A DNA stretch of 64,000 nucleotides from contig JAGXRP010000021.1 in NCBI GenBank assembly GCA_018335795.1, forward strand, positions 86 to 64,085, read 5' to 3'. Below are positions 1 through 36,436 of this stretch, piece after piece. The notes under the pieces are model-generated. The model had not been told where the DNA came from and did no database searches. It was given only the letters and a program-made list of their open reading frames with translations. Each line of letters begins with the position of its first letter. Position 1 is the first letter of the stretch. Position numbers and translations under genes: made by a program. Source of the stretch: Desulfobulbaceae bacterium. GTDB taxonomy: Bacteria > Bacteroidota > Ignavibacteria > Kapaibacteriales > UBA2268.

Positions 1-1530
1 ATCGGCTGTGGCGACGGAAGTCGGGAAACCGTATGAGTCATAACTGTCATATCCATAAGCATAAGCTACAAATGGGTCTTTTGCACGAAGTTTGTAAACA
101 CCGTCGTATAATAATTTGATAGTTTTGGAATAATATTTTCTGCCATCCACATCAAAATCATTAAATGCAGTTCCCGGATTGCCGGAAAAAGCTTCGAGTG
201 GAATCCATCTGAATTGTCCGTCAAGAACTTCGGCAATTTCAATATCCTGTGGCATACCACCATCTAATGTAGCTTTGTAAACTAAATTAATGAAATTATC
301 TTTAAAACCAAATCCACCACGAATACCCGGTGTATTGAATACAATTTCAGTTTGGTATTGTTGAATAGGAGAAAGTTGCAATTGGAACGGGTCATTTTCT
401 ACACCGTCATCTTGTTGACCCGGATTAAATTGTACTACGTTTATAGCTTCATTAGCTGAAACAACCACAGGACGTGGGTTAGCGTCAAAACCGGCTCGAG
501 TTTCCACCCAGCCTTTGCCCATTAATCCACCCGGATTTTGTATAGTTAAAGATGGTAAGCCATCAAAAAAAGTCTGGGTCATCGGCTTTTTGGCAAATAT
601 TTTTATAATTGTATAATTCTTACGTGCCTGAATTGGTGTTACGTGGTACTTTTTACCCCAGACATTTTCGGGTAATTCCTGCTCTATAATAAAGTCACAG
701 GCTGCTATGTGCGTTGGAATATAGGCGCAGAAATTGCCGGACAAGACATTAACAGGTTTAGTCGCACTGATTGTACTTCCCGTTAGGTCATTAAAAGGTC
801 CTATACCGGGAATTAACCAAACGTCGCCTTCATTCAATGTGGCTCTCATGACTTCGAGAGCTCTTAGTGTATCACCACTTAAAAGTGGGACCATCATGTT
901 TTCGAAGCCGCCAAGCCGGAATGTTACTTTTGTATTATCGTAAACACCAACAATACTTGTATATGAGGGTAGGAATTGTGATGTGTTATTAGTCGGGTCT
1001 GCGTAAGAGGCAACCTGATATTTTTGTCCTAAAGAACTAACAGGTAGTGCCAAATAACCGTCTGATGTATATTTATATCTTGTAACGCCATAAACAACAA
1101 TCGGATAATCCGCAGATAGTTTGATTGCTCTGCCTTCCCAAACTTGAGCAGGCTGCGGTCTTATGGGTAAGCCCCCACTACCTTTTGAATAGGCTTGACC
1201 TTCGGTTACCGGCAAAATAAACTCGATAACGTCATTTGGTACTGTAACTTTCTGTCTGAAAATTGCCAGACCCGGTATCTCTAATGTTACAGTAGTAGCA
1301 ACAGCAGATGATACATAAAGACGAAGTGAGTTGTTCGGACCCGGGTCTTCCCAACATGGGTGGAAAGTTACCCAGAACAATGTTCCGGCATTGTTTGAGC
1401 CTAACAATTGCGGCAAATTAGACTTGAAATCATCGACACCAGCTTCTCCTGATTGTGCCATCATATTCATCGTTCCTATCAGAACGAATACAAGCAGCAA
1501 GACTGCAAACTTGTTAAGTAAATTCTTCAT
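1..1530 (-). CDS. IgGFc-binding-domain secreted protein/adhesin (3' part runs off the window start; absent from ORF track)
   Basis: Manual translation from ATG at 1530 (GAGG upstream) is open to base 1: MKNLLNKFAVLLLVFVLIGTMNMMAQ...NAGTLFWVTFHPCWED...YGVTRYKYTSDGYLALPVSSLGQKY...YAYGYDSYDSYGFPT. Signal peptide plus IgGFc-binding-type motifs shared with 37329..39743. Confidence 0.8.
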   Translation of the reverse strand, partial: MKNLLNKFAVLLLVFVLIGTMNMMAQSGEAGVDDFKSNLPQLLGSNNAGTLFWVTFHPCWEDPGPNNSLRLYVSSAVATTVTLEIPGLAIFRQKVTVPNDVIEFILPVTEGQAYSKGSGGLPIRPQPAQVWEGRAIKLSADYPIVVYGVTRYKYTSDGYLALPVSSLGQKYQVASYADPTNNTSQFLPSYTSIVGVYDNTKVTFRLGGFENMMVPLLSGDTLRALEVMRATLNEGDVWLIPGIGPFNDLTGSTISATKPVNVLSGNFCAYIPTHIAACDFIIEQELPENVWGKKYHVTPIQARKNYTIIKIFAKKPMTQTFFDGLPSLTIQNPGGLMGKGWVETRAGFDANPRPVVVSANEAINVVQFNPGQQDDGVENDPFQLQLSPIQQYQTEIVFNTPGIRGGFGFKDNFINLVYKATLDGGMPQDIEIAEVLDGQFRWIPLEAFSGNPGTAFNDFDVDGRKYYSKTIKLLYDGVYKLRAKDPFVAYAYGYDSYDSYGFPTSVATAD

Positions 1531-1904: not shown

Positions 1905-4556
1905 TTAATATTCGCCTTCATATTCTGTAAGTGGAGTTCTTACAATAACCTGAACGGTTCGATTGTAAAAACGTCCTTCGGGCAAATCGTTCGAATATAG
2001 TGGGTCTTCTTCACCAACACCATTACTACTCAGTGAAGAATATTTACCACCGGTTTGTTTGTTGATCCCTTGCTTAACAAAATCAGACCTTCTCCCTGAT
2101 AGTTTCTTGTTGTGGTCATACATTCCAACGATGTCTGTATGTCCTATTACTTCAATAACTGAAGAAGTACGGCATCTTTCGTAAACATATTCTTCCATGA
2201 TACGTGAGTTGATTGGTCCTGCGTTATCAGAGTCAAATGGGAAAAGAATCAAGTTGTAAGTTTCGCGTGTGGTATCAATCGTACCTTCGGTAACCATCCT
2301 TGTCGAAGATACTTGCATGACAGGAATAGTAACAGGGTCTGATTTACATTCGGCACCAGTTTGTGTTGTGATTACTAATTGAGCAGTGTAAGATAATTCG
2401 TCAGTTGGATATTCACGAGCCATGTTAGTCCAATTCCAATTAACTTTTTCATCAGTTAAGCCAACGTCAGTCAAAGTACGCCAGTTTTGGTTGTTTCTTG
2501 TAATTTCAATTCTCCTCTTAGCTACAAGTTGGTCTTCAATACCGTTTTTCATTTTCCAATTCATTGTACGTGGTTGTGGTTCTGTAATCGAACCGACGTC
2601 AAACACAGGCTTGACTACTTCCCAATCAGTACATCTGATTTCGACACGACGGTTTTCCTGAACGCCAATGCTGTCAATTCTAGTGCTTGTCGGGTGTTGT
2701 GGTTTGCCATGTTTACCGAGAGTCATGCGCGATTCGTCAATTTTCCATACATCTCTGAAGTAGTTATAAACTTTTTGAGCACGTGCTTCGGCAAGTTTAA
2801 CGTCTTTTTCAACTTCCATATCAATAGTTCCAACGATTTCGATTTTAGCATTTGGATTATTCGTAAGTCTATAACCATAAATGTTCATAACGTGGTAATA
2901 TTTATCGAGAGTACCGCCTAAAATAGTTGTGTCTGTAAATATTCCGGTTTGGTCATATGAGTCTAATAAGATGTATCTATCAGGGATAACCGAACTACCG
3001 GGCTCAAAGAAGACATAATTAAGTAGTGGATAAAGGTTCCAAGTCTTAGTTTCTTTCATTACAAGTCCTCTGAAAGAAGCTAATTTTGGTTGGGAAGCTT
3101 TAACCATACGGATGTATTCCGGTTCATCAATGTCAGCAACTAATTCGGGTCTCTGACCTAAAGTAATTGTTAAACGAACTTCGTCCGGGCGATTCACTTC
3201 GTCAGGGTCTTCAGTAGTACCCGGGCGTTCAATTCTTTGAACTACTGTTTTTGTACCGTATTTAGGATTGTAAGCAGTAACTTCAAGGTCAACGTATTTA
3301 AGCGAATCTTTTGGATTGCCATAATCTTGATTTGAAACTATTAGTTCGTGTTCTGTTTTTCTATTTGTAACGCTATCAATGACAGAGCGGCTGGTGTAAG
3401 GATTTTTTATGGTGATTGTTGCAGGAATAAATTCTTGAGAACATTCATCAACGACAGTTGTAATCAAATTTATTGCCTTGAAGAAAGAAGGTACAAAAGC
3501 CATGAATACATCAAGATTCCCTTGGAATCCTTTCAAATCTTCACGACGAGAAGAGAAATACAAAACGTCACCGGATGCAGGTAAAGAAATGAACATTTCA
3601 TCTTCTTTAGTATTAATCGGCTCGCCTAAGTTTTCGGGTTTACCAAATTTTCCTGATATTCCGTCCATCCGCGAGACATAAAAGTCCAACCCGCCAATCC
3701 TAGGTCTATGACCGTCTGAAGCAAAAAAGAGTGTCTGATTATCAGCGGCAATAAATGGAGAAAACTCAGTTCCGCTTGTATTAATTTCTTCTAAGTTCTT
3801 TGCAGGTTTCCATTCTTCGTTGTCATCATCCCATTCGCAATACCAGATATCCATGTTTTTCATCAAAGGAGTACCATTGCTGTTTGGACCTTTCCGTGCT
3901 GAAACAAAATATAATTTTCTTTGGTCGGGCGATATAGAAGGCTGTGAATCCCAGTTATCAGAATTCACATTTTTCCCCAAATTGACCGGACGCCCCCATT
4001 TATCGCCGTCAATTATCGAGCGGTAAATATCGCATGAACCTAATCCGTCAGGACGGTCACAAGCAGTGAAATAGAGTGTTTGTCTATCTGCGGCAATAGA
4101 AGCAGCACCTTCATGGAACTCAGTATTTACATTCAAATAACCAAGTCCTGTAAGAACGTCAATGTTATATGGTTCAAAAAACACAGTATCTAATCTGTCA
4201 TTTTTCTTTGCTGCCCAAAAGTCATGCGACGGATTATTATCTTCGCCAAGTTTACTTCCGGGTCTATTCGACACATAAAATAATGTTCTACCATCGGCAC
4301 TAATAGTTGGTGCATAATCAACACCTGAGTGATTAATTATTGGACCTAAGTTAATAATGCGAATTCTCTGATTATCAATGATGCCTCCTTGTTGAGATGG
4401 ACTGTTGACTATCTCAGCACTCATCAAATACGCTTCTGATGTATTGAAAGCCAATAATGACTCTTTAAATTCCATACTTTGGGATTTCAAAGTCATAGAA
4501 CCGATTAGAAAATAAGCCATAATAAACCATAAGGCTCTGTAGTTGAAACTTTGCAT
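1905..4556 (-). CDS. OmpA-family protein with PD40/WD40-like beta-propeller and two OmpA-like domains
   Basis: Repeated PD40 motifs (APTISADGRTLFYVS, QPSISPDQRKLYFVS, SPFIAADNQTLFFAS). C-terminal GHTDIVG...NKKLSGRR...NRTV and an internal YVFFEPGS...LAEARAQKV...NRRVEI. Confidence 0.85.
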   Translation of the reverse strand: MQSFNYRALWFIMAYFLIGSMTLKSQSMEFKESLLAFNTSEAYLMSAEIVNSPSQQGGIIDNQRIRIINLGPIINHSGVDYAPTISADGRTLFYVSNRPGSKLGEDNNPSHDFWAAKKNDRLDTVFFEPYNIDVLTGLGYLNVNTEFHEGAASIAADRQTLYFTACDRPDGLGSCDIYRSIIDGDKWGRPVNLGKNVNSDNWDSQPSISPDQRKLYFVSARKGPNSNGTPLMKNMDIWYCEWDDDNEEWKPAKNLEEINTSGTEFSPFIAADNQTLFFASDGHRPRIGGLDFYVSRMDGISGKFGKPENLGEPINTKEDEMFISLPASGDVLYFSSRREDLKGFQGNLDVFMAFVPSFFKAINLITTVVDECSQEFIPATITIKNPYTSRSVIDSVTNRKTEHELIVSNQDYGNPKDSLKYVDLEVTAYNPKYGTKTVVQRIERPGTTEDPDEVNRPDEVRLTITLGQRPELVADIDEPEYIRMVKASQPKLASFRGLVMKETKTWNLYPLLNYVFFEPGSSVIPDRYILLDSYDQTGIFTDTTILGGTLDKYYHVMNIYGYRLTNNPNAKIEIVGTIDMEVEKDVKLAEARAQKVYNYFRDVWKIDESRMTLGKHGKPQHPTSTRIDSIGVQENRRVEIRCTDWEVVKPVFDVGSITEPQPRTMNWKMKNGIEDQLVAKRRIEITRNNQNWRTLTDVGLTDEKVNWNWTNMAREYPTDELSYTAQLVITTQTGAECKSDPVTIPVMQVSSTRMVTEGTIDTTRETYNLILFPFDSDNAGPINSRIMEEYVYERCRTSSVIEVIGHTDIVGMYDHNKKLSGRRSDFVKQGINKQTGGKYSSLSSNGVGEEDPLYSNDLPEGRFYNRTVQVIVRTPLTEYEGEY

Positions 4557-4796
4557 AATACCTACCTTTTGTTAACTAATAAAATATTTTTTATCAAAAA
4601 TCAATTTCTTCTATCAACAAATCCGTATCAGTACGGCATTCTAATAAACTAATTTTTTCTTAATACAAATTTCAAGAAAAAATTTTAAGAATTTGCATTT
4701 AAAAAAGTATAAATTACAGCAATTGGAATTAATTCGCAAAGTTTTTCTTAAAAAAAATGAATTTTTCTTAAAAAAAGGGCGGTTTTGTTTCGGTTT

Positions 4797-5612
4797 TCAC
4801 AATTTCAAGCTTAATTCGAACATTATACGCCAAGAATTTATCATAAAATCCTCGCCTTTGTCAGAATAATTTGAGATTGGCAATCTGTACATGAAGAAAG
4901 GGCGCAGAAATATTTTTTTATTGACAATAAAATTGAGTCCTATCATAGGAACAATACTGAATTGGGGCTTATTTACTTCGGGAAATTCTTTATCTTCAAG
5001 AACTACTTTTGTTTCTTGTGTGCCTTCTATTCTAATGTCCACAATAGCACCATTACTAAGCCGAGCGGTGGTCTTAGTCAACTCTTTCTCGTGTTTTATA
5101 TTCGAGCTTAGGGGAATTCCCATACTAAAACCCAAGTCAAAGAAAACAAATTTTAGGGGATGGAACTTGATATGCGGCATAATCGAAAAGGCTGTAAACT
5201 TTGCTTCTGCTGTATGGCGAAATGGAACTGTTATGATTTCGTTGTACGAACCGTCATCAGAAGTTACGTTGAGTTTCTCGTTTTCAACAAACGAGTTCTT
5301 CAAACCGAAATCATCGAAAAGTCCCATTACTCCAATGTTAATCATGTTGCTTAAGTTGTACTCATAATTCAATCCGATTGTAAAACCGAATTTGACTCCA
5401 TCTTCAAATACGCAATCGTCGCAATCAACATAATATTTGCCGGATTGGAAATTTTGCCCAAAACCTATTACTAAACCAAGCTGATGGTAATTGTATAGTT
5501 GTTCGGGTTGAATAGGTGACGGCATAGTTTGTGACTCTGCTTGGTTGGCTGTTGAAAGTGATGCCACAATCACTATCATAAGGGTCTTTAACAATAAGTT
5601 CATATCTCTCAA
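4797..5612 (-). CDS. Outer-membrane beta-barrel protein (PorT/OMP_b-brl-like)
   Basis: Signal peptide, alternating hydrophobic strands, C-terminal SWRIMFELSLKL. The true start may be ATG at 5603. Confidence 0.65.
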   Translation of the reverse strand: MRDMNLLLKTLMIVIVASLSTANQAESQTMPSPIQPEQLYNYHQLGLVIGFGQNFQSGKYYVDCDDCVFEDGVKFGFTIGLNYEYNLSNMINIGVMGLFDDFGLKNSFVENEKLNVTSDDGSYNEIITVPFRHTAEAKFTAFSIMPHIKFHPLKFVFFDLGFSMGIPLSSNIKHEKELTKTTARLSNGAIVDIRIEGTQETKVVLEDKEFPEVNKPQFSIVPMIGLNFIVNKKIFLRPFFMYRLPISNYSDKGEDFMINSWRIMFELSLKL

Positions 5613-29986: not shown

Positions 29987-30862
29987 TTATAGTTGTTTGA
30001 TTTTATATTTATTTTTGCTTTCCAAAAGCTGTACTATTCCGCGTTCACCTAATAAATGCAGCGAGCCGACCACTATAAAATGTTTATCACCGGAGGCTAT
30101 ATACTCTTCAATTTTTTTGGTCATGCTGATATTTCTTGAAAAATTCAAATCTTCCATCACTTGCTCGAAACCTTCATATTGATTCCCTTCTTGCGAAATT
30201 TCATATATTCTGTCCGAATCGCCTTGCTTCCAAGCATCAATTAGCTCTTTGACATATTTTTTGGTATCATCAAGTTCGGTTAATGTATAATCCAAATATT
30301 CGCCTGTGTAAGCGTTCAATCTATTCATCATAGACATCTGAAATTCTAATGATTCGAGTTCTTTTACCATTTTACCGGACGATTTTGCTCTTTCGAGGAA
30401 GTGCAAATCAATGCCTTCGTGTTGTGAAAATCCATTACTTAGCATTTCCAATGATTGCAAAGTCATAACAGCAGCCCATGGTTTGAAAGTGCTGAAAGCC
30501 ATCTCAGGCACATTGTGTTTGTCCATATATTCTTTGATTTGCGCATATTGCTCGGTTGTAATCATATCTTTAAGCAAAGTATCGCCTTCATAGGACATAT
30601 ACTTATAAATATCAAGTGCGTTATGAGCGCTTGGGTCTAACTCCAGAACGAGATATTCACATTCCTCGAAAGATTCGATTATTACAGTATCCAAGGGGTA
30701 CAAGCTTTCATCGGCGATGTGAATTGAGCCAAGCAGGTAAACAACATTGCCGCCGGATTCGACCTTCCAAAGCAAATTCTTCTTTTGCGAGCCCGAATCA
30801 ACCGATGAACACGCTATAAAAGCTATAATCAGAGGCAAAAAGGCATATTTTGTAAATTTCAT
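29987..30862 (-). CDS. TraB/GumN family lipoprotein
   Basis: Lipobox FIA-C, LLWKV...YLLGSIHI, LESLEFQ, RN..M...FIVVGSLHL. Confidence 0.88.
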   Translation of the reverse strand: MKFTKYAFLPLIIAFIACSSVDSGSQKKNLLWKVESGGNVVYLLGSIHIADESLYPLDTVIIESFEECEYLVLELDPSAHNALDIYKYMSYEGDTLLKDMITTEQYAQIKEYMDKHNVPEMAFSTFKPWAAVMTLQSLEMLSNGFSQHEGIDLHFLERAKSSGKMVKELESLEFQMSMMNRLNAYTGEYLDYTLTELDDTKKYVKELIDAWKQGDSDRIYEISQEGNQYEGFEQVMEDLNFSRNISMTKKIEEYIASGDKHFIVVGSLHLLGERGIVQLLESKNKYKIKQL

Positions 30863-31004
30863 ACTAACTTTAATAAATTATAAACTACATGCAACTTTTT
30901 ACGGAATTGTACCACTTATATTATTTAGAAAGAGAAATTATGGTAAATAAGTCCGATTTGAACATGTTTTACAAATTTAGATAAAATAAACCGATAAAGG
31001 TCTA

Positions 31005-32543
31005 ATGATGAAATATATATTATTCACACTCTACATAATACTAATTCAAACAGAAATATCTGCTCAGAGCAATAATATTTCATATCTTTCTTATAACAAG
31101 GCAAATGAAATTTTGAATTCCAGCATTCGTGCAAACGGCAATTTTTTAGATATACAGTGTATGCAATTCAAGATTCAAGGAAGGGATATGTTGTTGTCGC
31201 ACATCAGAAAACCTTGGGCGACAGTTGAATACCCATTTCAAGGCAATTTTACAATGGATGAAAATTACGAGAATAAAATGATTTCTCGCACTCTCAAGAA
31301 AAGCGGGCATATTGGTATGGTGATGAGCAAGAAGGATGAAGTCTATGTAAAGTATTATTCTTCTAACGACACTGTTAATGTTAGCGGCGAATTAGCTAAA
31401 TACTTCATTAATTCATTAACTCAGATGCTCCCGCATTTGATTCTGGCTGAAGCTGTTCGAAATCGTGAGACTCTCACTTACATAGGAGATGAGAAAATTG
31501 GTGAATTTGCTTATAATGTAATTTCATTCAATAATCAACAAGGTAAAAGAAGATTAATTTATGTAGATAGTCAAAGCGGATTGGTATTCAAAGTCCAAAA
31601 CTTATTCTTTGACAAACAGTGGCCCCACGGAGATGTAATCGAAGAAACAATATATACAGAATATAAATTAATAAATGGCATCCCAATTCCTACTTTTAAG
31701 ATAGTCAAAAGTAGCGATGTAATCATTCAAAGCTATGAATTTAGTGATTTCATGATAAATGTACTCTCAGATTCCTCGGCTTTTGAAATCCCGAATTCAA
31801 CAGAAAAAGGGGAAGTAAAATCAACACAGAACGATGACGCAATAGACATTTCGAATTTACTCATTGAGGAAGTCGGCGAACATTTATATACATTGTATTT
31901 GCCTCCATTGGATTGCAAATCAATGATTATGGAATTCAAGGATTCAATATTAGTAATTGAATCTGCAACAAATTCTGAATATGGCACATTGATAATTGAC
32001 AAAATTCACGACTATTTCCCTAACAAGGTAATCAGTACAGTTGTTTTGAGTCATTATCATCCTTATAGCATGGGTGGAATTAGAGCTTTTGTACACGCTG
32101 GTGCCAATGTAGTTACTACAAAGGGCAACGAGGATTATGCGAAATTCATTATCAATGCTCCTTACAGTTTGCAAGCTGATAGTCTTCAGCTGAATCCCAA
32201 AATAGCTAATATCATTATAGTAAATGACAAGAAAATCGTATTTTCGGAGAATAATTTAAAAGTTGAAATATATGACATAGGCATAAAATCCAATCATACA
32301 GATGAATTCCTTATCAGCTATTTCCCACATGAGAAACTATTATTCACCGGAGATATTTGCTTTGTACCTAAAAACTATGATGATAAAACGCAGGTTAGCA
32401 GTCGGACAAGGGGATTGTACGAAAGTATCGTTGAATTAGGGATTGATGTAGATACTATTATCCCAAATTGGCCCTCGAAAGCATCATCATATAAGGAAAT
32501 GGTTTCTTTTGAAGAACTTGAAAAATTTGTTCTGAAGAAATGA
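31005..32543 (+). CDS. Secreted protein with a C-terminal MBL-fold-like domain
   Basis: Signal peptide, VVLSHYHPYSMGGIR, HTDEFLISYFPHEKLLFTGD. Confidence 0.7.
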   Translation: MMKYILFTLYIILIQTEISAQSNNISYLSYNKANEILNSSIRANGNFLDIQCMQFKIQGRDMLLSHIRKPWATVEYPFQGNFTMDENYENKMISRTLKKSGHIGMVMSKKDEVYVKYYSSNDTVNVSGELAKYFINSLTQMLPHLILAEAVRNRETLTYIGDEKIGEFAYNVISFNNQQGKRRLIYVDSQSGLVFKVQNLFFDKQWPHGDVIEETIYTEYKLINGIPIPTFKIVKSSDVIIQSYEFSDFMINVLSDSSAFEIPNSTEKGEVKSTQNDDAIDISNLLIEEVGEHLYTLYLPPLDCKSMIMEFKDSILVIESATNSEYGTLIIDKIHDYFPNKVISTVVLSHYHPYSMGGIRAFVHAGANVVTTKGNEDYAKFIINAPYSLQADSLQLNPKIANIIIVNDKKIVFSENNLKVEIYDIGIKSNHTDEFLISYFPHEKLLFTGDICFVPKNYDDKTQVSSRTRGLYESIVELGIDVDTIIPNWPSKASSYKEMVSFEELEKFVLKK

Positions 32544-32609
32544 GTCTAATGATTTTATGTTGGAAATTTGATAGAATTTTTCTCAATTTCTGTTATTTTC
32601 CTCTTGTGT

Positions 32610-32634
32610 GAAACCTTTTTTGGATTTGTGGCAC
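32610..32634 (+). promoter_or_regulatory. Putative autoregulatory ECF promoter (near-leaderless)
   Basis: GAAACC-N15-GCAC, 7 nt before the sigma ATG. Confidence 0.5.
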
Positions 32635-32641
32635 TTATATT

Positions 32642-33250
32642 ATGAGTAGAGAACATAATTTGGAAATAGGATTGAAAGATAGTAAACAAAATGAATTCAT
32701 GATTTATTATGACCGAGTGAAATTCAAACTCTCGGGATTTGCGAGAGCAATCACTCGCAATACCGAGAATGCAAGAGACTTGGTTAGCGATACTGTGTTG
32801 GCAGCTTACGAAAATTTTGATAAGATTAAAAATAAAGAGTCCTTCAGCAGTTATATTTTTACCATAGCGGTCAGATTGAATCGTAAGCGTAAGTCAAAAA
32901 TGAAGAACTTTGAAGAAATGGATGATATGGCATTGGAGAATTTGATAAATCACGACCCGATGCCCGATATTTCTCACGACATAAAAGTGCTTTACAACAC
33001 ATTGGACAAATTGCCTGAAAAGATGAAGGAAGCAATCATTTTGTACGAAATTTCAGGATTTACAATCGAAGAAATCAAAGAAATTCAAGGTGGAACAATT
33101 TCGGGTGTGAAATCGAGATTGAAAAGAGGACGAGAAAAATTAAGCGAATTGATGAGTGATAAATTTACATACAAAATGAATAACAATTATTCAGCTGAAC
33201 AGAATGAGTTTTCAAAAAAAAATGAAAAATTAATGAAAGTAGGGATATAA
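32642..33250 (+). CDS. ECF RNA polymerase sigma-70 factor
   Basis: ARDLVSDTVLAAYENF, SFSSYIFTIA, LPEKMKEAIILYEISGFTIEEI...VKSRLKRGREKL. Confidence 0.92.
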   Translation: MSREHNLEIGLKDSKQNEFMIYYDRVKFKLSGFARAITRNTENARDLVSDTVLAAYENFDKIKNKESFSSYIFTIAVRLNRKRKSKMKNFEEMDDMALENLINHDPMPDISHDIKVLYNTLDKLPEKMKEAIILYEISGFTIEEIKEIQGGTISGVKSRLKRGREKLSELMSDKFTYKMNNNYSAEQNEFSKKNEKLMKVGI

Positions 33251-33251
33251 A

Positions 33252-34949
33252 ATGAATAATAAACATACGAATATTGATAATATTTTTGATAAAGCTCGAA
33301 ATCTGGAGCCGGTTTTGAATGATAGTGAGGTTCGCGAACTCATTAGCACAAGTACCGTCAATCCGGTGAGTACAGGTATTTTTAATTACGGAGTAAATAA
33401 AATGACTATATTAAGTTCAATGACAGCTCTTGTCGTATCAGGATTGCTACTATTCAATGTAATTGATTCTGATAAACAAGAACCTACAAATAACAAGGCT
33501 ACTGTTGAATTTTCAACTGCAAAATCGAACCCCGTTGCAAAAGAAGAATTACCAAATGACGATGAGAAAGACATGAATAAAAGTAGAATTAAGCCTAATG
33601 AGCTTGCTATGACTACATACGACATTAATGATGACATCGAATTACCCAAAAAAACTGACAAAATTAACGGAATAAATACAATTACATTACCATATAAAGA
33701 TTTAGATTTATACAATATCAAATTCGACACGAAAACTAAAAATTATGAAGTAATTAGTGGGAAGATGCGAATTGCTATTAGTCCGGATATAAAAACACAA
33801 TTTATTGCGAACTCAGAAGATATTGATCTCGATAAAACAATAGTTCCAAAATTAATTACCTCAGCAAATGGTAACGTAAAAATTGCTTTTTTGACTAATA
33901 ATAATGACATTAGCCCTGAGTGGGAGGAAAATAATCCTAATCAAGTGCTTTATACTGAAAGAGTTGATGACCTTTCATTATTAAGTGATGTAAGCCTTGA
34001 TGATTTATTGCCACTAGAACAAATTAATCCATATACTCTTGATTCACTAATTTCAGCTTGGGGAAATTCCGATAACTTGGGTAAATTCGAAATTGATAGA
34101 AGTAAATTATCAGTGCATATGAACAAATTTAATTTAAATGATAACCTGAATTTAGATTCATCTAATTTTGAAAATTTCGAGTTTGAATTTGATTTTAGTA
34201 ACTTTGATAGTAGTTTGAATAAAATTATGATTTTCCAAAGCGATTCATTGCGATTCAACTCAAGTAATATACAAATTGATTTGAATAATTTGGACAGCAT
34301 AATCAACAAGAAAATAGAGCAAAAAATAGTAATTAAACGCCAAAATAACGAATCAAATATTGACTCATTAGGTGAGTCGAAAATGGATAAAATTCACAGA
34401 ATGATGCCCAAAGACAAATTTTCGCATCTTGATAATCGCCTTAAAATGATGACTGAATTGACTGTCAATAAATTAATTCCTGTCCGATTTGATGTTCCGG
34501 ATGGCGGCGCAGACTTAATCTTCTGGTTTGAACCGACAGATGAACTACTCGAAGTCGTGCCGGATAACATCAAATCACAGGTCGCAGCCGAGATTGAAGC
34601 GATTAACAGCAGCGAAGATATTTGCAAAGCGGCACCTGAGACAGGTTCCGAGACTATAATGGACGTTTGGCGTTCGTGTAGTGGTGCAGTCGAAAACATG
34701 ATGGTTTATCCAAATCCTACAAATGGTCCGGTTTCTGTCAATTTCCAATTGAAAGAGGACAGAAAAGTGAAACTTTCGATTCATGACCTTACAGGGAAAT
34801 TATTGATGACACTATCACCGGAAACACTAATTCGCAAAGGCGAATTCCGCGAGAATTTCAATTTGAACAAGTTAACTCCCGGAATGTATTTGCTCGTAGC
34901 CCAAACACACTACGGCGAACAAACTTTGCAACGCATAGTTATTGAATAA
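33252..34949 (+). CDS. Single-pass anti-sigma-like protein with a C-terminal T9SS sorting domain
   Basis: About 50-aa soluble N-terminus, then TM MTILSSMTALVVSGLLLFNVI. C-terminus VYPNPTNGPVSVNF...KLSIHDLTGK...LTPGMYLLVAQT...RIVIE. Starts 1 nt after the sigma stop. Confidence 0.8.
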   Translation: MNNKHTNIDNIFDKARNLEPVLNDSEVRELISTSTVNPVSTGIFNYGVNKMTILSSMTALVVSGLLLFNVIDSDKQEPTNNKATVEFSTAKSNPVAKEELPNDDEKDMNKSRIKPNELAMTTYDINDDIELPKKTDKINGINTITLPYKDLDLYNIKFDTKTKNYEVISGKMRIAISPDIKTQFIANSEDIDLDKTIVPKLITSANGNVKIAFLTNNNDISPEWEENNPNQVLYTERVDDLSLLSDVSLDDLLPLEQINPYTLDSLISAWGNSDNLGKFEIDRSKLSVHMNKFNLNDNLNLDSSNFENFEFEFDFSNFDSSLNKIMIFQSDSLRFNSSNIQIDLNNLDSIINKKIEQKIVIKRQNNESNIDSLGESKMDKIHRMMPKDKFSHLDNRLKMMTELTVNKLIPVRFDVPDGGADLIFWFEPTDELLEVVPDNIKSQVAAEIEAINSSEDICKAAPETGSETIMDVWRSCSGAVENMMVYPNPTNGPVSVNFQLKEDRKVKLSIHDLTGKLLMTLSPETLIRKGEFRENFNLNKLTPGMYLLVAQTHYGEQTLQRIVIE

Positions 34950-34978
34950 TTACGATTCATAATTACAAAATCAACAAG

Positions 34979-35004
34979 AATGGAGGGCTCATGCTCTCCA
35001 TTTT
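34979..35004 (+). terminator. Rho-independent terminator after the sigma/anti-sigma operon
   Basis: AATGGAGGGC-tcat-GCTCTCCATT followed by TT. Confidence 0.65.
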
Positions 35005-35164: not shown

Positions 35165-36436
35165 ATGATGACTATTTTAAAAATTAAGAATATAGTATTG
35201 ATTTGCCTTTTCATGTTGCCTTCTTTGATGAGGGCTGACAGATTGATTATACCGATGGATTTGGCTCAAACTGACCATCTCAAAGCTTATGGTGTGACAT
35301 TTTGGATACTCGAAAACGGTGGCACAGCCGATTGGCTGCTCAACTATCGTGGTGGGTCTTTCTTAGTTGATTATACTGATAAGTTTGCAGCTGAATGTCG
35401 AATTCGCGGTGTTTCTTTTGAGCGACTAAGCGAATCACAAGCTCTATCAATTATAGATGAGGTCAGCCAAGAAAACGTAAATATGGAAGTGGTCAAACTC
35501 GAAAAGCCACCAAAGATTGCCGTTTACGCCCCTCCCGGCGCCCAACCTTGGGACGATGCTGTACGTATTGCACTTGAATATGCCGAAGTTAAGCATGATT
35601 TAATTTGGGATGAAGAAGTAATGGGCGACAAACTCAAGGAATACGATTGGCTACACCTCCATCATGAAGACTTTACAGGGCAGCACGGCAAATTTTGGGT
35701 TGCTTATAGGAACACTCCTTGGTATATTCAGCAGGTCGCTTTAAATGAAAGTATGGCAAAGAAGCTCGGTTTCCCTGATGTTTGCGAGCTTAAAAAGGCA
35801 GTAGCCCGCCAAATTCGCGAATATACTGCTTCGGGTGGATTTTTATTTGCTATGTGTACAGCTACAGATTCTTACGATATTGCTTTGTCAGTAGAGCATG
35901 TGGACATGTGCGATGTTATGTTCGACGGCACTCCGCATGACCATGGTGCCAATTCCAAGTTGAATTTTGAAGAGACTTTCGCTTTTGAGAATTTCCGTTT
36001 GATTTTAGACCCGATGGAAGTGGAATTTTCGGATATTGATGTAGGGCATCACAATGTCAACAATCCCGATGCCGATTGGTTCACTTTGTTCGATTTTTCG
36101 GCTAAATATGACCCTGTACCGTCAATGCTGACACAAAATCACGTAAATGTTATCAAAGGTTTCATGGGGCAAACGACATCTTTCAACAAGGATTTGCTCA
36201 AAAATACGGTAACGATTTTGGCTATGAAAGAAGGCACAAATGAGGTCAAATACATTCACGGAAATGTTGGCAGGGGAACTTATACCTGGCTTGGCGGTCA
36301 CGACCCTGAAGATTATGTGCATAGAGTTGGCGATCCACCGACGGATTTGAATTTGTTCAAAAATTCTCCCGGATACAGACTGATTCTGAATAATATCTTG
36401 TTCCCTGCTGCAAAAAAGAAAAAACAGAAAACTTAA
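35165..36436 (+). CDS. Conserved Bacteroidota exported protein (often labelled asparagine synthetase B); function unknown
   Basis: LIIPMD..QTDHLKAYG, WLLNYRGGSF, YDWLHLHHEDFTGQHGKF, FAMCTATDSYDIAL, GHDPED, SPGYRLILNN. Confidence 0.8.
   Translation: MMTILKIKNIVLICLFMLPSLMRADRLIIPMDLAQTDHLKAYGVTFWILENGGTADWLLNYRGGSFLVDYTDKFAAECRIRGVSFERLSESQALSIIDEVSQENVNMEVVKLEKPPKIAVYAPPGAQPWDDAVRIALEYAEVKHDLIWDEEVMGDKLKEYDWLHLHHEDFTGQHGKFWVAYRNTPWYIQQVALNESMAKKLGFPDVCELKKAVARQIREYTASGGFLFAMCTATDSYDIALSVEHVDMCDVMFDGTPHDHGANSKLNFEETFAFENFRLILDPMEVEFSDIDVGHHNVNNPDADWFTLFDFSAKYDPVPSMLTQNHVNVIKGFMGQTTSFNKDLLKNTVTILAMKEGTNEVKYIHGNVGRGTYTWLGGHDPEDYVHRVGDPPTDLNLFKNSPGYRLILNNILFPAAKKKKQKT

Follow-up and report, generated by a model that had tools for sequence, protein, structure and literature searches.

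A probable sigma/anti-sigma gene pair carrying a T9SS sorting domain suggests gene control wired to the T9SS

What is the role of a membrane-anchored protein that is encoded directly behind an ECF sigma factor and ends in a T9SS C-terminal sorting domain (CTD)? A two-gene unit within a 64-kb stretch of DNA (the whole stretch analysed, hereafter the window) raises this question. The two genes very probably form a sigma/anti-sigma module, as follows from the conserved N-terminus of the second protein (the partner), the invariable pairing, the promoter and the transcription of both genes as one unit. We lean slightly towards an autoregulated ECF sigma/anti-sigma operon, in which the partner would be the anti-sigma factor and the release of the sigma factor would be set by the fate of the CTD-bearing ectodomain.

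Table 1. Features of the two-gene unit and its upstream neighbour (positions in the window).
Feature	Positions	Strand	Description
Second ECF-type promoter copy, CAACTTTTTACGGAATTGTACCACTTAT	30892..30919	+	86 nt 5' of the MBL-fold gene
Signal-peptide protein, 512 aa, MBL-fold domain aa ~300-460	31005..32543	+	Pfam Lactamase_B 27.3 bits, cutoff 22.7
ECF-type promoter of the operon	32609..32638	+	TGAAAC (-35-like), 17-nt spacer, CACTTAT (-10-like)
ECF (group 4) sigma gene, 202 aa	32642..33250	+	Sigma70_r2 and r4_2, TIGR02937 above cutoff
Partner ORF, 565 aa	33252..34949	+	1-nt gap to the sigma gene
Cytoplasmic N-terminal domain, aa 1-33	33252..33350	+	two short helices, family motif NIDNIFDKARNLEPVLNDSEVRELI; proposed sigma-binding region
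Single transmembrane helix, N-in, aa 48-71	33393..33464	+	Kyte-Doolittle, AF2, charge bias
Disordered periplasmic tether, aa 72-135	33465..33656	+	pLDDT <50 over 67-113, low to ~135; poorly conserved
Beta-rich periplasmic module, aa 136-216	33657..33899	+	motifs GINxIxL, PKLITSANGN; pLDDT 73-94
Variable low-complexity spacer, aa 217-395	33900..34436	+	mostly pLDDT <50; holds the N/D/S/F/L stretch
Family-specific pre-CTD module, aa 396-484	34437..34703	+	VNKLIPV...IFWFEPT...LP...C..P.TG.E..DVWRSCSGA.EN; pLDDT 77-93
T9SS type A CTD, aa 485-565, and stop codon	34704..34949	+	PF18962, TIGR04183, pLDDT 90-97
Terminator-like hairpin	34977..35004	+	3' of the stop codon, 12 bp, weak U tract after

The first gene encodes a sigma factor with regions 2 and 4 only, which match Pfam Sigma70_r2 (PF04542) and Sigma70_r4_2 (PF08281). 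It scores 65.5 bits against TIGR02937 (sigma70-ECF; cutoff 42.9), and the ECF identity assigned in the earlier note is thus borne out. None of the curated equivalog or subfamily models reaches its cutoff, so the protein is assigned to no named ECF group. Of 8000 candidates scored with a profile built on the sigma factor, 1638 are relatives at E<=1e-10. The partner ORF follows after the 1-nt gap described previously. The operon promoter consists of TGAAAC (32609-32614) and CACTTAT (32632-32638) and has the consensus form AAC-N17-CACTTAT; the promoter GAAAC noted earlier at 32610 belongs to the -35-like element of this motif, which is kept in relatives. The four closest loci are identical in this promoter (4/4), and a strict regular expression finds the AAC-TTTT...C[AT]CTTA architecture 5' of the sigma gene at 18 fetched loci, about 15 of them non-redundant. 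As the promoter ends 3 nt before the ATG, the operon mRNA probably has no leader or hardly any. At the other end of the unit, the terminator claimed earlier corresponds to a 12-bp hairpin that a simple scan missed and whose dG of -17.5 kcal/mol lies far below that of shuffled sequences (mean -6.6, sd 2.6). Metatranscriptome contigs start at 32658, shortly 3' of the promoter, and cover the unit up to 34988, with none on its flanks. One of these contigs bridges the sigma/partner junction. The contig end at 34988 falls within the hairpin, and RNA is absent past 35062.

The partner belongs to a large and undescribed family that comprises 454 or more clusters at 50 % identity, with members in Kapabacteria, Ignavibacteria and Bacteroidota MAGs. 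The earlier note had proposed a search for conserved pairs of an ECF sigma gene with a TM-CTD gene, and the pair is kept at every locus examined. Upstream DNA is available for 23 loci (about 22 pairs after removal of redundancy, including two tandem doubles), and at each of them an ECF sigma gene of the same subfamily lies directly 5' on the same strand. These upstream sigma factors score 130-280 bits against the sigma profile, and those ahead of distant partner-family members are 32-43 % identical to the sigma factor studied here. The reverse search, starting from the sigma factor, finds a Por_Secre_tail protein encoded behind it in both matches (2/2). Half of the pairs share a 4-nt overlap (ATGA), which points to translational coupling; in another pair (L022b), sigma factor and partner are in frame, separated by a TAA and a 6-nt gap. 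No other anti-sigma candidate occurs beside these sigma genes at the loci examined.

The promoter sequence also points to a candidate target. The strict promoter expression matches twice in the window, compared to 0.12 matches in shuffled sequence, and the second copy is retained in two relatives (L006 and L007). This copy precedes the MBL-fold gene, which makes that gene a candidate member of the sigma regulon. In the same two relatives the MBL-fold gene is mostly deleted with its 3' end left, and no RNA contigs map to it in the metatranscriptome. Two observations on the regulon count against the reading that we favour. The MBL-fold protein, the sole candidate regulon gene found, has no obvious link to secretion, and in the genomes of seven relatives the exact promoter pattern occurs at the sigma gene only. 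A search of GTDB genomes for GCAACTTTTT-N11-13-CACTTATA gave 79 matches, which are mostly due to chance; four Bacteroidota matches were rejected as promoters because they fall within a ~287-aa ORF whose coding sequence is conserved.

The C-terminus of the partner is a T9SS type A CTD. Por_Secre_tail (PF18962) matches aa 485-564 with 42 bits (cutoff 27) and TIGR04183 scores 35.7 bits (cutoff 23), so that the domain previously placed from aa ~486 passes both curated cutoffs. PF18962 matches in 64/64 aligned family members. Foldseek matches of the full model include the CTD of RemA (8gl6_D) and PorU (6za2_B), and the fold search of the full model gives just generic Ig-like sandwich matches, all via the CTD. 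Further CTD proteins are encoded in the window; T9SS component genes are absent from it, a point against the reading that we favour. Conservation in the family is highest in the N-terminus and in the family-specific module ahead of the CTD; the Cys pair of this module is missing from some members. The mid module (aa 136-216) reaches a pLDDT of 78 and a pTM of 0.64 when predicted alone and has conserved residues G140, N142, P199 and G207; its fold has no significant match in the PDB (best E 0.28). The spacer between the two modules (aa 217-395) lacks a portion in two relatives (P0004 and P0005). The N/D/S/F/L low-complexity stretch seen earlier maps to aa ~290-350, inside a region of pLDDT <50 (aa 306-387).

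The CTD, which has a strongly conserved family-specific module ahead of it, seems to pack with the mid module, as judged from the predicted pTM, and this arrangement would suit a sensor assembly. The partner might be a cognate anti-sigma factor whose CTD-like domain never enters the T9SS but works in the periplasm as an Ig-like domain, either as a sensor or as a ligand. Binding partners of such a domain could reside in the periplasm or the outer membrane, or the domain could compete with the CTDs of cargo proteins for a carrier, and ordinary regulated proteolysis would pass on the signal. We consider this unlikely, because all hallmarks of secreted type A CTDs are kept and the curated cutoffs are passed, with matches in every aligned member. 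Furthermore, the TM helix and the CTD are 456 aa apart in the family median and never closer than 265 aa, and a tether of at least this length fits a reach to the outer membrane.

At the opposite end of the partner, AF2 predicts helices at aa 8-17 and 24-33 (pLDDT ~85). Residues M1, N7, I8, N10, F12, A15, R28, L30 and I31 are invariant in a family alignment that extends to 29 % identity. The motif NLDxYFxKARNxEPxxSxDEARxLI is kept in relatives down to 20-29 % identity, and the N-terminal motif is found in most of the 150 family representatives listed. Searches of this N-terminus against Pfam and NCBIfam give zero matches at E<=10, and known anti-sigma domains (zf-HC2, RskA etc.) are found neither in the N-terminus nor in the middle region of 64 members at E<=1. 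The lack of an N-terminal match to a known anti-sigma domain family counts against the sigma/anti-sigma-T9SS reading, and the cytoplasmic part of ~35-47 aa is short compared to the ~80-90 aa of a class I anti-sigma domain. The partner has a single hydrophobic segment, with a Kyte-Doolittle peak of 2.11 at aa 53-71 and an AF2 helix at aa 48-68, in agreement with the TM helix (aa ~52-70, after ~50 soluble residues) of the earlier note. Basic residues are concentrated N-terminal of this helix, with a mean of 2.87 K+R in the 12 aa before compared to 0.75 after it, and 108 members have more K+R before the helix while five have more after it. According to the positive-inside rule, the topology is thus N-in. 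All known T9SS effectors have an N-terminal cleavable Sec signal peptide (PMC10202324), whereas the partner sequence predicts a conserved soluble N-terminus of 47 aa followed by a TM-length helix. The uniformity of known cargo in this respect also counts against the reading that we favour.

Might the 565-aa protein be a target of the sigma factor rather than its inhibitor? It would then be a co-transcribed surface protein or T9SS cargo whose N-terminal signal-anchor is unusually long, the N-terminus serving in targeting or processing and not in sigma binding. The missing match to anti-sigma domain families suits this idea, an I-D-S/D sequence after the helix is readable as a weak signal-peptidase site, and other secretion systems offer examples of extended signal peptides whose N-terminal extensions are conserved. 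However, few parts of this very large family are as well conserved as the soluble N-terminal motif of ~35 aa, and the gene always takes the position of an anti-sigma gene, frequently with the 4-nt overlap, next to sigma genes that have no other anti-sigma candidate. Moreover, the hydrophobic segment is of TM length, with an uncharged run of 19 aa (family median) compared to 9-16 aa in the ordinary signal peptides of the window. A target of this kind is therefore improbable. An ordinary T9SS cargo with a cleaved signal peptide and a true start at Met51, a residue that is nearly invariant in the family and immediately precedes the hydrophobic segment, can be dismissed as highly improbable, since the 50 codons before Met51 are kept as protein in relatives down to 20-29 % identity (aa 1-35 being conserved family-wide), close relatives differ most often at third codon positions (36/30/66), the ATG at 33252 keeps an identical 1-nt gap to the sigma stop codon in L006-L008, and a signal peptide from Met51 would have no basic n-region. 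In addition, the hydrophobic run is of TM length and the basic residues are N-terminal of it. Judging from these sequence comparisons, the partner starts at Met1; a start at Met51 would have refuted the idea of the earlier note, as would a lack of conservation of the pair.

How does the partner compare to known systems? Searches of the literature returned no publication on an anti-sigma factor that ends in a T9SS CTD. RseA (with DegS and RseP), RsiW and RsiV are single-pass ECF anti-sigma factors that are removed by regulated intramembrane proteolysis. The partner resembles them in being N-in, single-pass and encoded in an operon with its sigma factor, with autoregulation as proposed here, but differs in the absence of a recognizable class I domain (zf-HC2, RskA). 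FlgM is a precedent for sigma release coupled to a secretion apparatus; it is soluble and exported whole, whereas the partner is membrane-anchored. The closest parallels in architecture are found with Dma1, which spans both membranes through a disordered tether and whose N-terminal 40 aa, Dma1(1-40), pull down its ECF21 sigma factor (PMC10927553). Like the partner, Dma1 is encoded directly 3' of an ECF sigma gene and has a short cytoplasmic N-terminus (~40 aa, sigma-binding in Dma1) and a single TM helix, with a long disordered tether in the periplasm that leads to a distal module destined for the outer membrane, and both families are limited to the Bacteroidota/FCB lineage. In the partner, however, the distal part is a T9SS type A CTD with two family-specific modules instead of an 8-stranded OMP_b-brl_2 barrel: PF13568 matches 0/64 family members, all of which end in Por_Secre_tail. 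Delivery to the outer membrane would accordingly use the T9SS and not BAM. An hhalign comparison of the partner N-terminus with one barrel-type, Dma-like family of Saprospiraceae (L056, P0285-P0311) gives a weak match of 14 columns (P 0.0015, probability 17 %), in which NLDxxF aligns with NLExFF; the weakness of this similarity speaks against the reading that we favour. The barrel-type pair at L056 has the same promoter pattern 8 nt 5' of its sigma gene, a hint that the sigma factor studied here may belong to ECF21.

A second parallel concerns the CTD itself. In Porphyromonas gingivalis, the CTD of PorA acts in the periplasm as a regulatory ligand, with the ECF sigma factor SigP downstream of it (PMC12152298). 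PorA retains activity when tethered to the inner membrane, and its authors propose that CTD accumulation reports T9SS function (PMC7712824, PMC12152298). The scheme proposed here resembles the PorA-PorXY-SigP pathway in that the regulatory signal is a T9SS type A CTD and the endpoint an ECF sigma factor. PorA is a cargo protein of its own with a signal peptide and acts via a PorY/PorX two-component system, which binds SigP; the partner, in contrast, combines the CTD and a putative sigma-binding domain on one polypeptide with no kinase.

The earlier note had suggested that engagement or clipping by the T9SS triggers regulated proteolysis and thereby releases the sigma factor. This idea is drawn from the architecture and gains plausibility from the Dma1 (PMC10927553) and PorA (PMC12152298) precedents. 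The arrangement of the domains leads us to infer the following scheme for sigma binding, T9SS engagement, proteolysis and signal direction. The conserved two-helix cytoplasmic N-terminus of ~35 aa would retain the sigma factor at the inner membrane, with the single TM helix as the N-in anchor of the anti-sigma factor. A largely disordered tether of at least 265 residues would put a conserved beta-rich assembly of mid module, pre-CTD module and CTD at outer-membrane distance. The fate of the CTD-bearing ectodomain, which might be capture and pulling by the T9SS, cleavage by a PorU-type sortase or failed uptake, would then set the stability of the anti-sigma factor. Site-1 and site-2 proteolysis would come next and free the sigma factor, which could transcribe, via AAC-N17-CACTTAT promoters, the operon that encodes it and, as a minimum, the neighbouring MBL-fold gene. 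A more specific version holds that the anti-sigma factor is an inner-membrane-tethered client of the T9SS, and that pulling on the CTD by the pmf-driven T9SS or PorU-type clipping removes the ectodomain and thus initiates site-1/site-2 proteolysis and sigma release. We put this version forward as a tentative possibility.

To our knowledge, transcription matched to T9SS capacity is known solely for Porphyromonas (PorA-PorXY-SigP), and all T9SS substrates that we know of are soluble periplasmic intermediates. In the family described here, hundreds of members join a T9SS sorting domain to a probable sigma-binding domain by a tether that would span the periplasm. The compact pair, with two genes and a defined promoter, makes the hypothesis directly testable. 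If it holds true, a single protein would link an outer-membrane secretion machine to RNA polymerase, and the pair would constitute a checkpoint at which transcription responds directly to secretion activity, a T9SS counterpart of FlgM export. Among T9SS substrates, the partner would also be the first that lacks a cleaved signal peptide, and the recently discovered principle of anti-sigma factors spanning both membranes would reach past beta-barrels.

The ECF sigma factor gene and the ORF of its partner protein make up a genuine two-gene module that is both conserved and transcribed. The two ORFs are co-oriented with a spacing of one base. The sigma factor scores 65.5 bits against TIGR02937 (cutoff 42.9), and none of the curated ECF subfamily models matches it at cutoff. 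A conserved ECF-type motif, [GC][ACG]AAC-TTTTT-N12-C[AT]CTTAT, precedes the sigma genes, and the operon copy in the window ends 3 nt short of the sigma ATG. The GAAAC at 32610, which the earlier note had taken for a promoter, belongs to this motif. Together with the hairpin after the partner gene, the putative terminator, whose folding energy lies far below that of shuffled sequences, every element of the promoter-sigma-ORF-terminator unit with its 1-nt gap was thus recovered. Two metatranscriptomes of anaerobic digesters supplied contigs with 97-100% identity to the window; these are confined to 32658-34988, and one (33216-33534) crosses the sigma/partner junction; none lies on 30800-32563 or past 35062. 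This agrees with a bicistronic promoter-to-terminator transcript, whose ends the contigs leave unfixed and for which DNA carry-over is possible. Directly downstream of the operon, a 423-aa ORF (35165-36436) has a signal-peptide-like N-terminus and zero Pfam or NCBIfam matches.

Features of the sigma/partner operon, its upstream neighbor and the AlphaFold2 model of the partner protein
Feature	Position	Strand	Evidence
Second promoter-motif copy	30892-30919	+	86 nt upstream of MBL-fold gene
Signal-peptide, MBL-fold protein gene, 512 aa	31005-32543	+	preceded by second motif copy
Operon promoter motif	TGAAAC 32609-32614, CACTTAT 32632-32638	+	conserved upstream of sigma genes
ECF sigma factor, 202 aa	32642-33250	+	Sigma70_r2 + Sigma70_r4_2; TIGR02937
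Partner protein, 565 aa	33252-34949	+	single hydrophobic segment; PF18962 + TIGR04183 at C-terminus
Terminator-like 12-bp hairpin	34977-35004	+	dG -17.5 kcal/mol vs -6.6 +/- 2.6 in shuffles
Two helices	aa 8-17, 24-33		pLDDT ~85
TM helix	aa 48-68		pLDDT low (~45-50)
Disordered stretch	after TM helix to ~aa 135		pLDDT mostly <50
Beta-rich (mid) module	aa 140-215		pLDDT 73-94
Mostly disordered spacer	aa 217-390		pLDDT mostly <50
Pre-CTD module + CTD	aa 400-565		pLDDT 77-97

Under a strict regular expression, the motif precedes the sigma gene in 18 retrieved loci (~15 non-redundant) and occurs twice in the 64-kb window (0.12 copies expected). Because the second copy precedes the MBL-fold gene, this gene is a candidate member of the sigma regulon. 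Both copies are kept in L006 and L007, close relatives of the window locus (second copy at 4213-4239 and 4175-4201, respectively), where the MBL-fold gene is mostly deleted and its 3' end (GAAAAATTTGTTCTGAAGAAATGA) alone is left before the sigma promoter. An exact-pattern scan of GTDB genomes revealed no further regulon targets, and in seven family genomes the sigma's own promoter was the only exact-pattern match. Four further loci (L059, L089, L095 and L102, from Maribacter, Pedobacter, Chitinophaga and a Bacteroidota MAG) match the pattern in a conserved stretch, GCAACTTTTTAATCGWTATGCCACTTATA. We rejected these matches as promoters since they sit within the coding sequence of a ~287-aa ORF, 5' of an internal start; they look like conserved coding sequence.

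The pairing is conserved well beyond the window. A 15-member family profile scored against 1.84 billion representatives yielded, at E<=1e-30, at least 454 clusters (50% identity), of which many aligned over full length. [quoted passage not shown] The named sources are all MAGs, assigned to Kapabacteria/Kapaibacterium, Ignavibacteria, Chlorobiota or Bacteroidota, a few of them obviously mis-binned. Three pair-bearing contigs (L013, L022, L025) come from MAGs labeled Hyphomicrobiales or Patescibacteria, probably through binning errors. Among 25 loci retrieved via the partner protein, two end at a contig edge; each of the 23 with upstream DNA (~22 non-redundant pairs) has a same-strand ECF sigma gene immediately 5' of the partner gene, and these sigmas all belong to one subfamily, scoring 130-280 bits on a profile built from six partner-linked sigmas. 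Searching from the sigma side, a Por_Secre_tail protein follows the sigma in two of two matches examined (contigs of 4.2-4.5 Mb). The pairing of ECF sigma and TM-CTD protein described in the earlier note is hence a conserved one, and as the flanking genes vary among loci, the conserved unit is the pair itself. An ATGA overlap joins the two genes in half of the pairs; the clade of the window retains the 1-nt gap. Tandem double pairs occur in L003 (3369-8415) and L022 (1526-5661); in the second pair of L022 the partner is in frame with the sigma, separated by a TAA stop and a 6-nt gap. In L013 (1094-3501) the family gene is broken into two ORFs, 1094-2623 and 2620-3501, by either a frameshift or a MAG assembly error. 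HtrA/DegP-type proteases are of the sort that performs site-1 cleavage on anti-sigma factors. In L008, a close relative of the window locus, a gene for one with Trypsin_2 and PDZ domains follows closely behind the pair in opposite orientation (3361-4866, minus strand); this neighbor is not conserved at other loci.

Translation of the partner from Met51, which would give an ordinary cleaved signal peptide and which the earlier note named as a refuting case, is countered by several lines of evidence. The first 35 residues are kept in homologs from 92% down to 29% identity, and M1, N7, I8, N10, F12, A15, R28, L30 and I31 are invariant in the alignment. The motif NLDxYFxKARNxEPxxSxDEARxLIEN opens most of the 150 family representatives listed in the profile search, and is followed by the hydrophobic segment at about residue 45-57. 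Among the four closest loci, differences at codon positions 1/2/3 in the first 150 nt number 36/30/66, favoring third positions. The uncharged run has a family median of 19 residues, compared with 9-16 in ordinary signal peptides of the window. Moreover, mean K+R in 12 residues is 2.87 before and 0.75 after the helix, the basic excess lying before it in 108 members and after it in 5. Translation thus starts at Met1, and the partner is predicted to cross the membrane once with its N-terminus inside (N-in), leaving a conserved ~47-aa part in the cytoplasm, with cleavage after the helix a less likely outcome.

The proposed layout, with one TM segment, an N/D/S/F/L stretch and a terminal CTD, is borne out by the hydrophobicity plot (sole Kyte-Doolittle peak at aa 53-71), by the low-complexity stretch at ~aa 290-350 and by both CTD models, which place a type A CTD at aa 485-564 (PF18962, 42 bits, cutoff 27; TIGR04183, 35.7 bits, cutoff 23). 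Por_Secre_tail is the only Pfam match, in 64/64 family members. In the AlphaFold2 model (64-sequence alignment), only ~45% of the chain is ordered yet pTM is 0.56, which suggests that mid module, pre-CTD module and CTD might pack as one body. The N-terminus and the pre-CTD module (VNKLIPV...IFWFEPT...DVWRSCSGA.EN) are best conserved, whereas the spacer is variable and partly missing in two homologs (P0004 and P0005). Fold searches found nothing for the mid module and generic Ig-like sandwiches alone for the CTD, RemA CTD and PorU among them.

In B. thetaiotaomicron, Dma1 is encoded downstream of the ECF21 sigma Das1, which the first 40 residues of Dma1 pull down; Dma1 further combines a single TM helix with a tether that is long and disordered, and ends in an 8-stranded outer-membrane barrel (PMC10927553). 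The partner family has every architectural feature of Dma but the barrel, in place of which it carries a T9SS CTD. As this defining feature is absent, we do not assign the family to Dma; very probably it works like Dma. The Saprospiraceae contig L056 carries a Dma-like pair whose promoter is of the type found at sigma/partner pairs: the pattern GCAACTTTTT...CACTTATA (1645-1674) ends 8 nt upstream of an ECF sigma gene (173 aa), after which comes a protein of 480 aa that begins with a ~45-aa N-terminus (MEDNNNLEKFFRDKFNQ...) and continues with a TM helix, a linker and an OMP_b-brl_2-type barrel, the latter seen in its homologs. With this barrel-type family substituting for Dma1, profile-profile comparison of the N-termini aligned the first-helix motif alone (NLDxxF vs NLExFF; P 0.0015, probability 17%), and common ancestry is possible. 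A second precedent is PorA of P. gingivalis: its CTD serves as a secretion signal and also, in the periplasm, as a ligand of PorY, in a pathway that leads to the ECF sigma SigP (PMC12152298). According to a current review, all T9SS effectors carry a Sec signal peptide (PMC10202324), which makes a CTD protein anchored in the membrane atypical; full-text literature searches turned up no anti-sigma factor bearing a T9SS CTD.

The interpretation offered in the earlier note is supported in part, an anti-sigma role of the partner being strongly indicated. Its constant anti-sigma position and frequent translational coupling, its N-in single-pass topology, its strongly conserved small cytoplasmic domain and the absence of another nearby regulator all match the expectation for a cognate anti-sigma factor, and we predict with good confidence that it acts by binding to, and inhibiting, the sigma encoded next to it. 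The type A CTD retains all secretion-signal features, and the tether is long enough for crossing the periplasm (TM-to-CTD distance in the family at least 265 residues, median 456). A trans-envelope anti-sigma factor is the reading with the best support: the fate of its CTD-bearing ectodomain at the T9SS or outer membrane would set partner stability, and regulated proteolysis would then free the sigma. Release may follow successful T9SS engagement or clipping of the CTD, as a secretion checkpoint, or failed CTD uptake, as a jam sensor; alternatively, the CTD may act as a periplasmic ligand only. The partner is thus probably a variant of the trans-envelope, Dma-like design of ECF anti-sigma factors, set apart by its T9SS CTD, and a coupling of sigma control to the T9SS is plausible.
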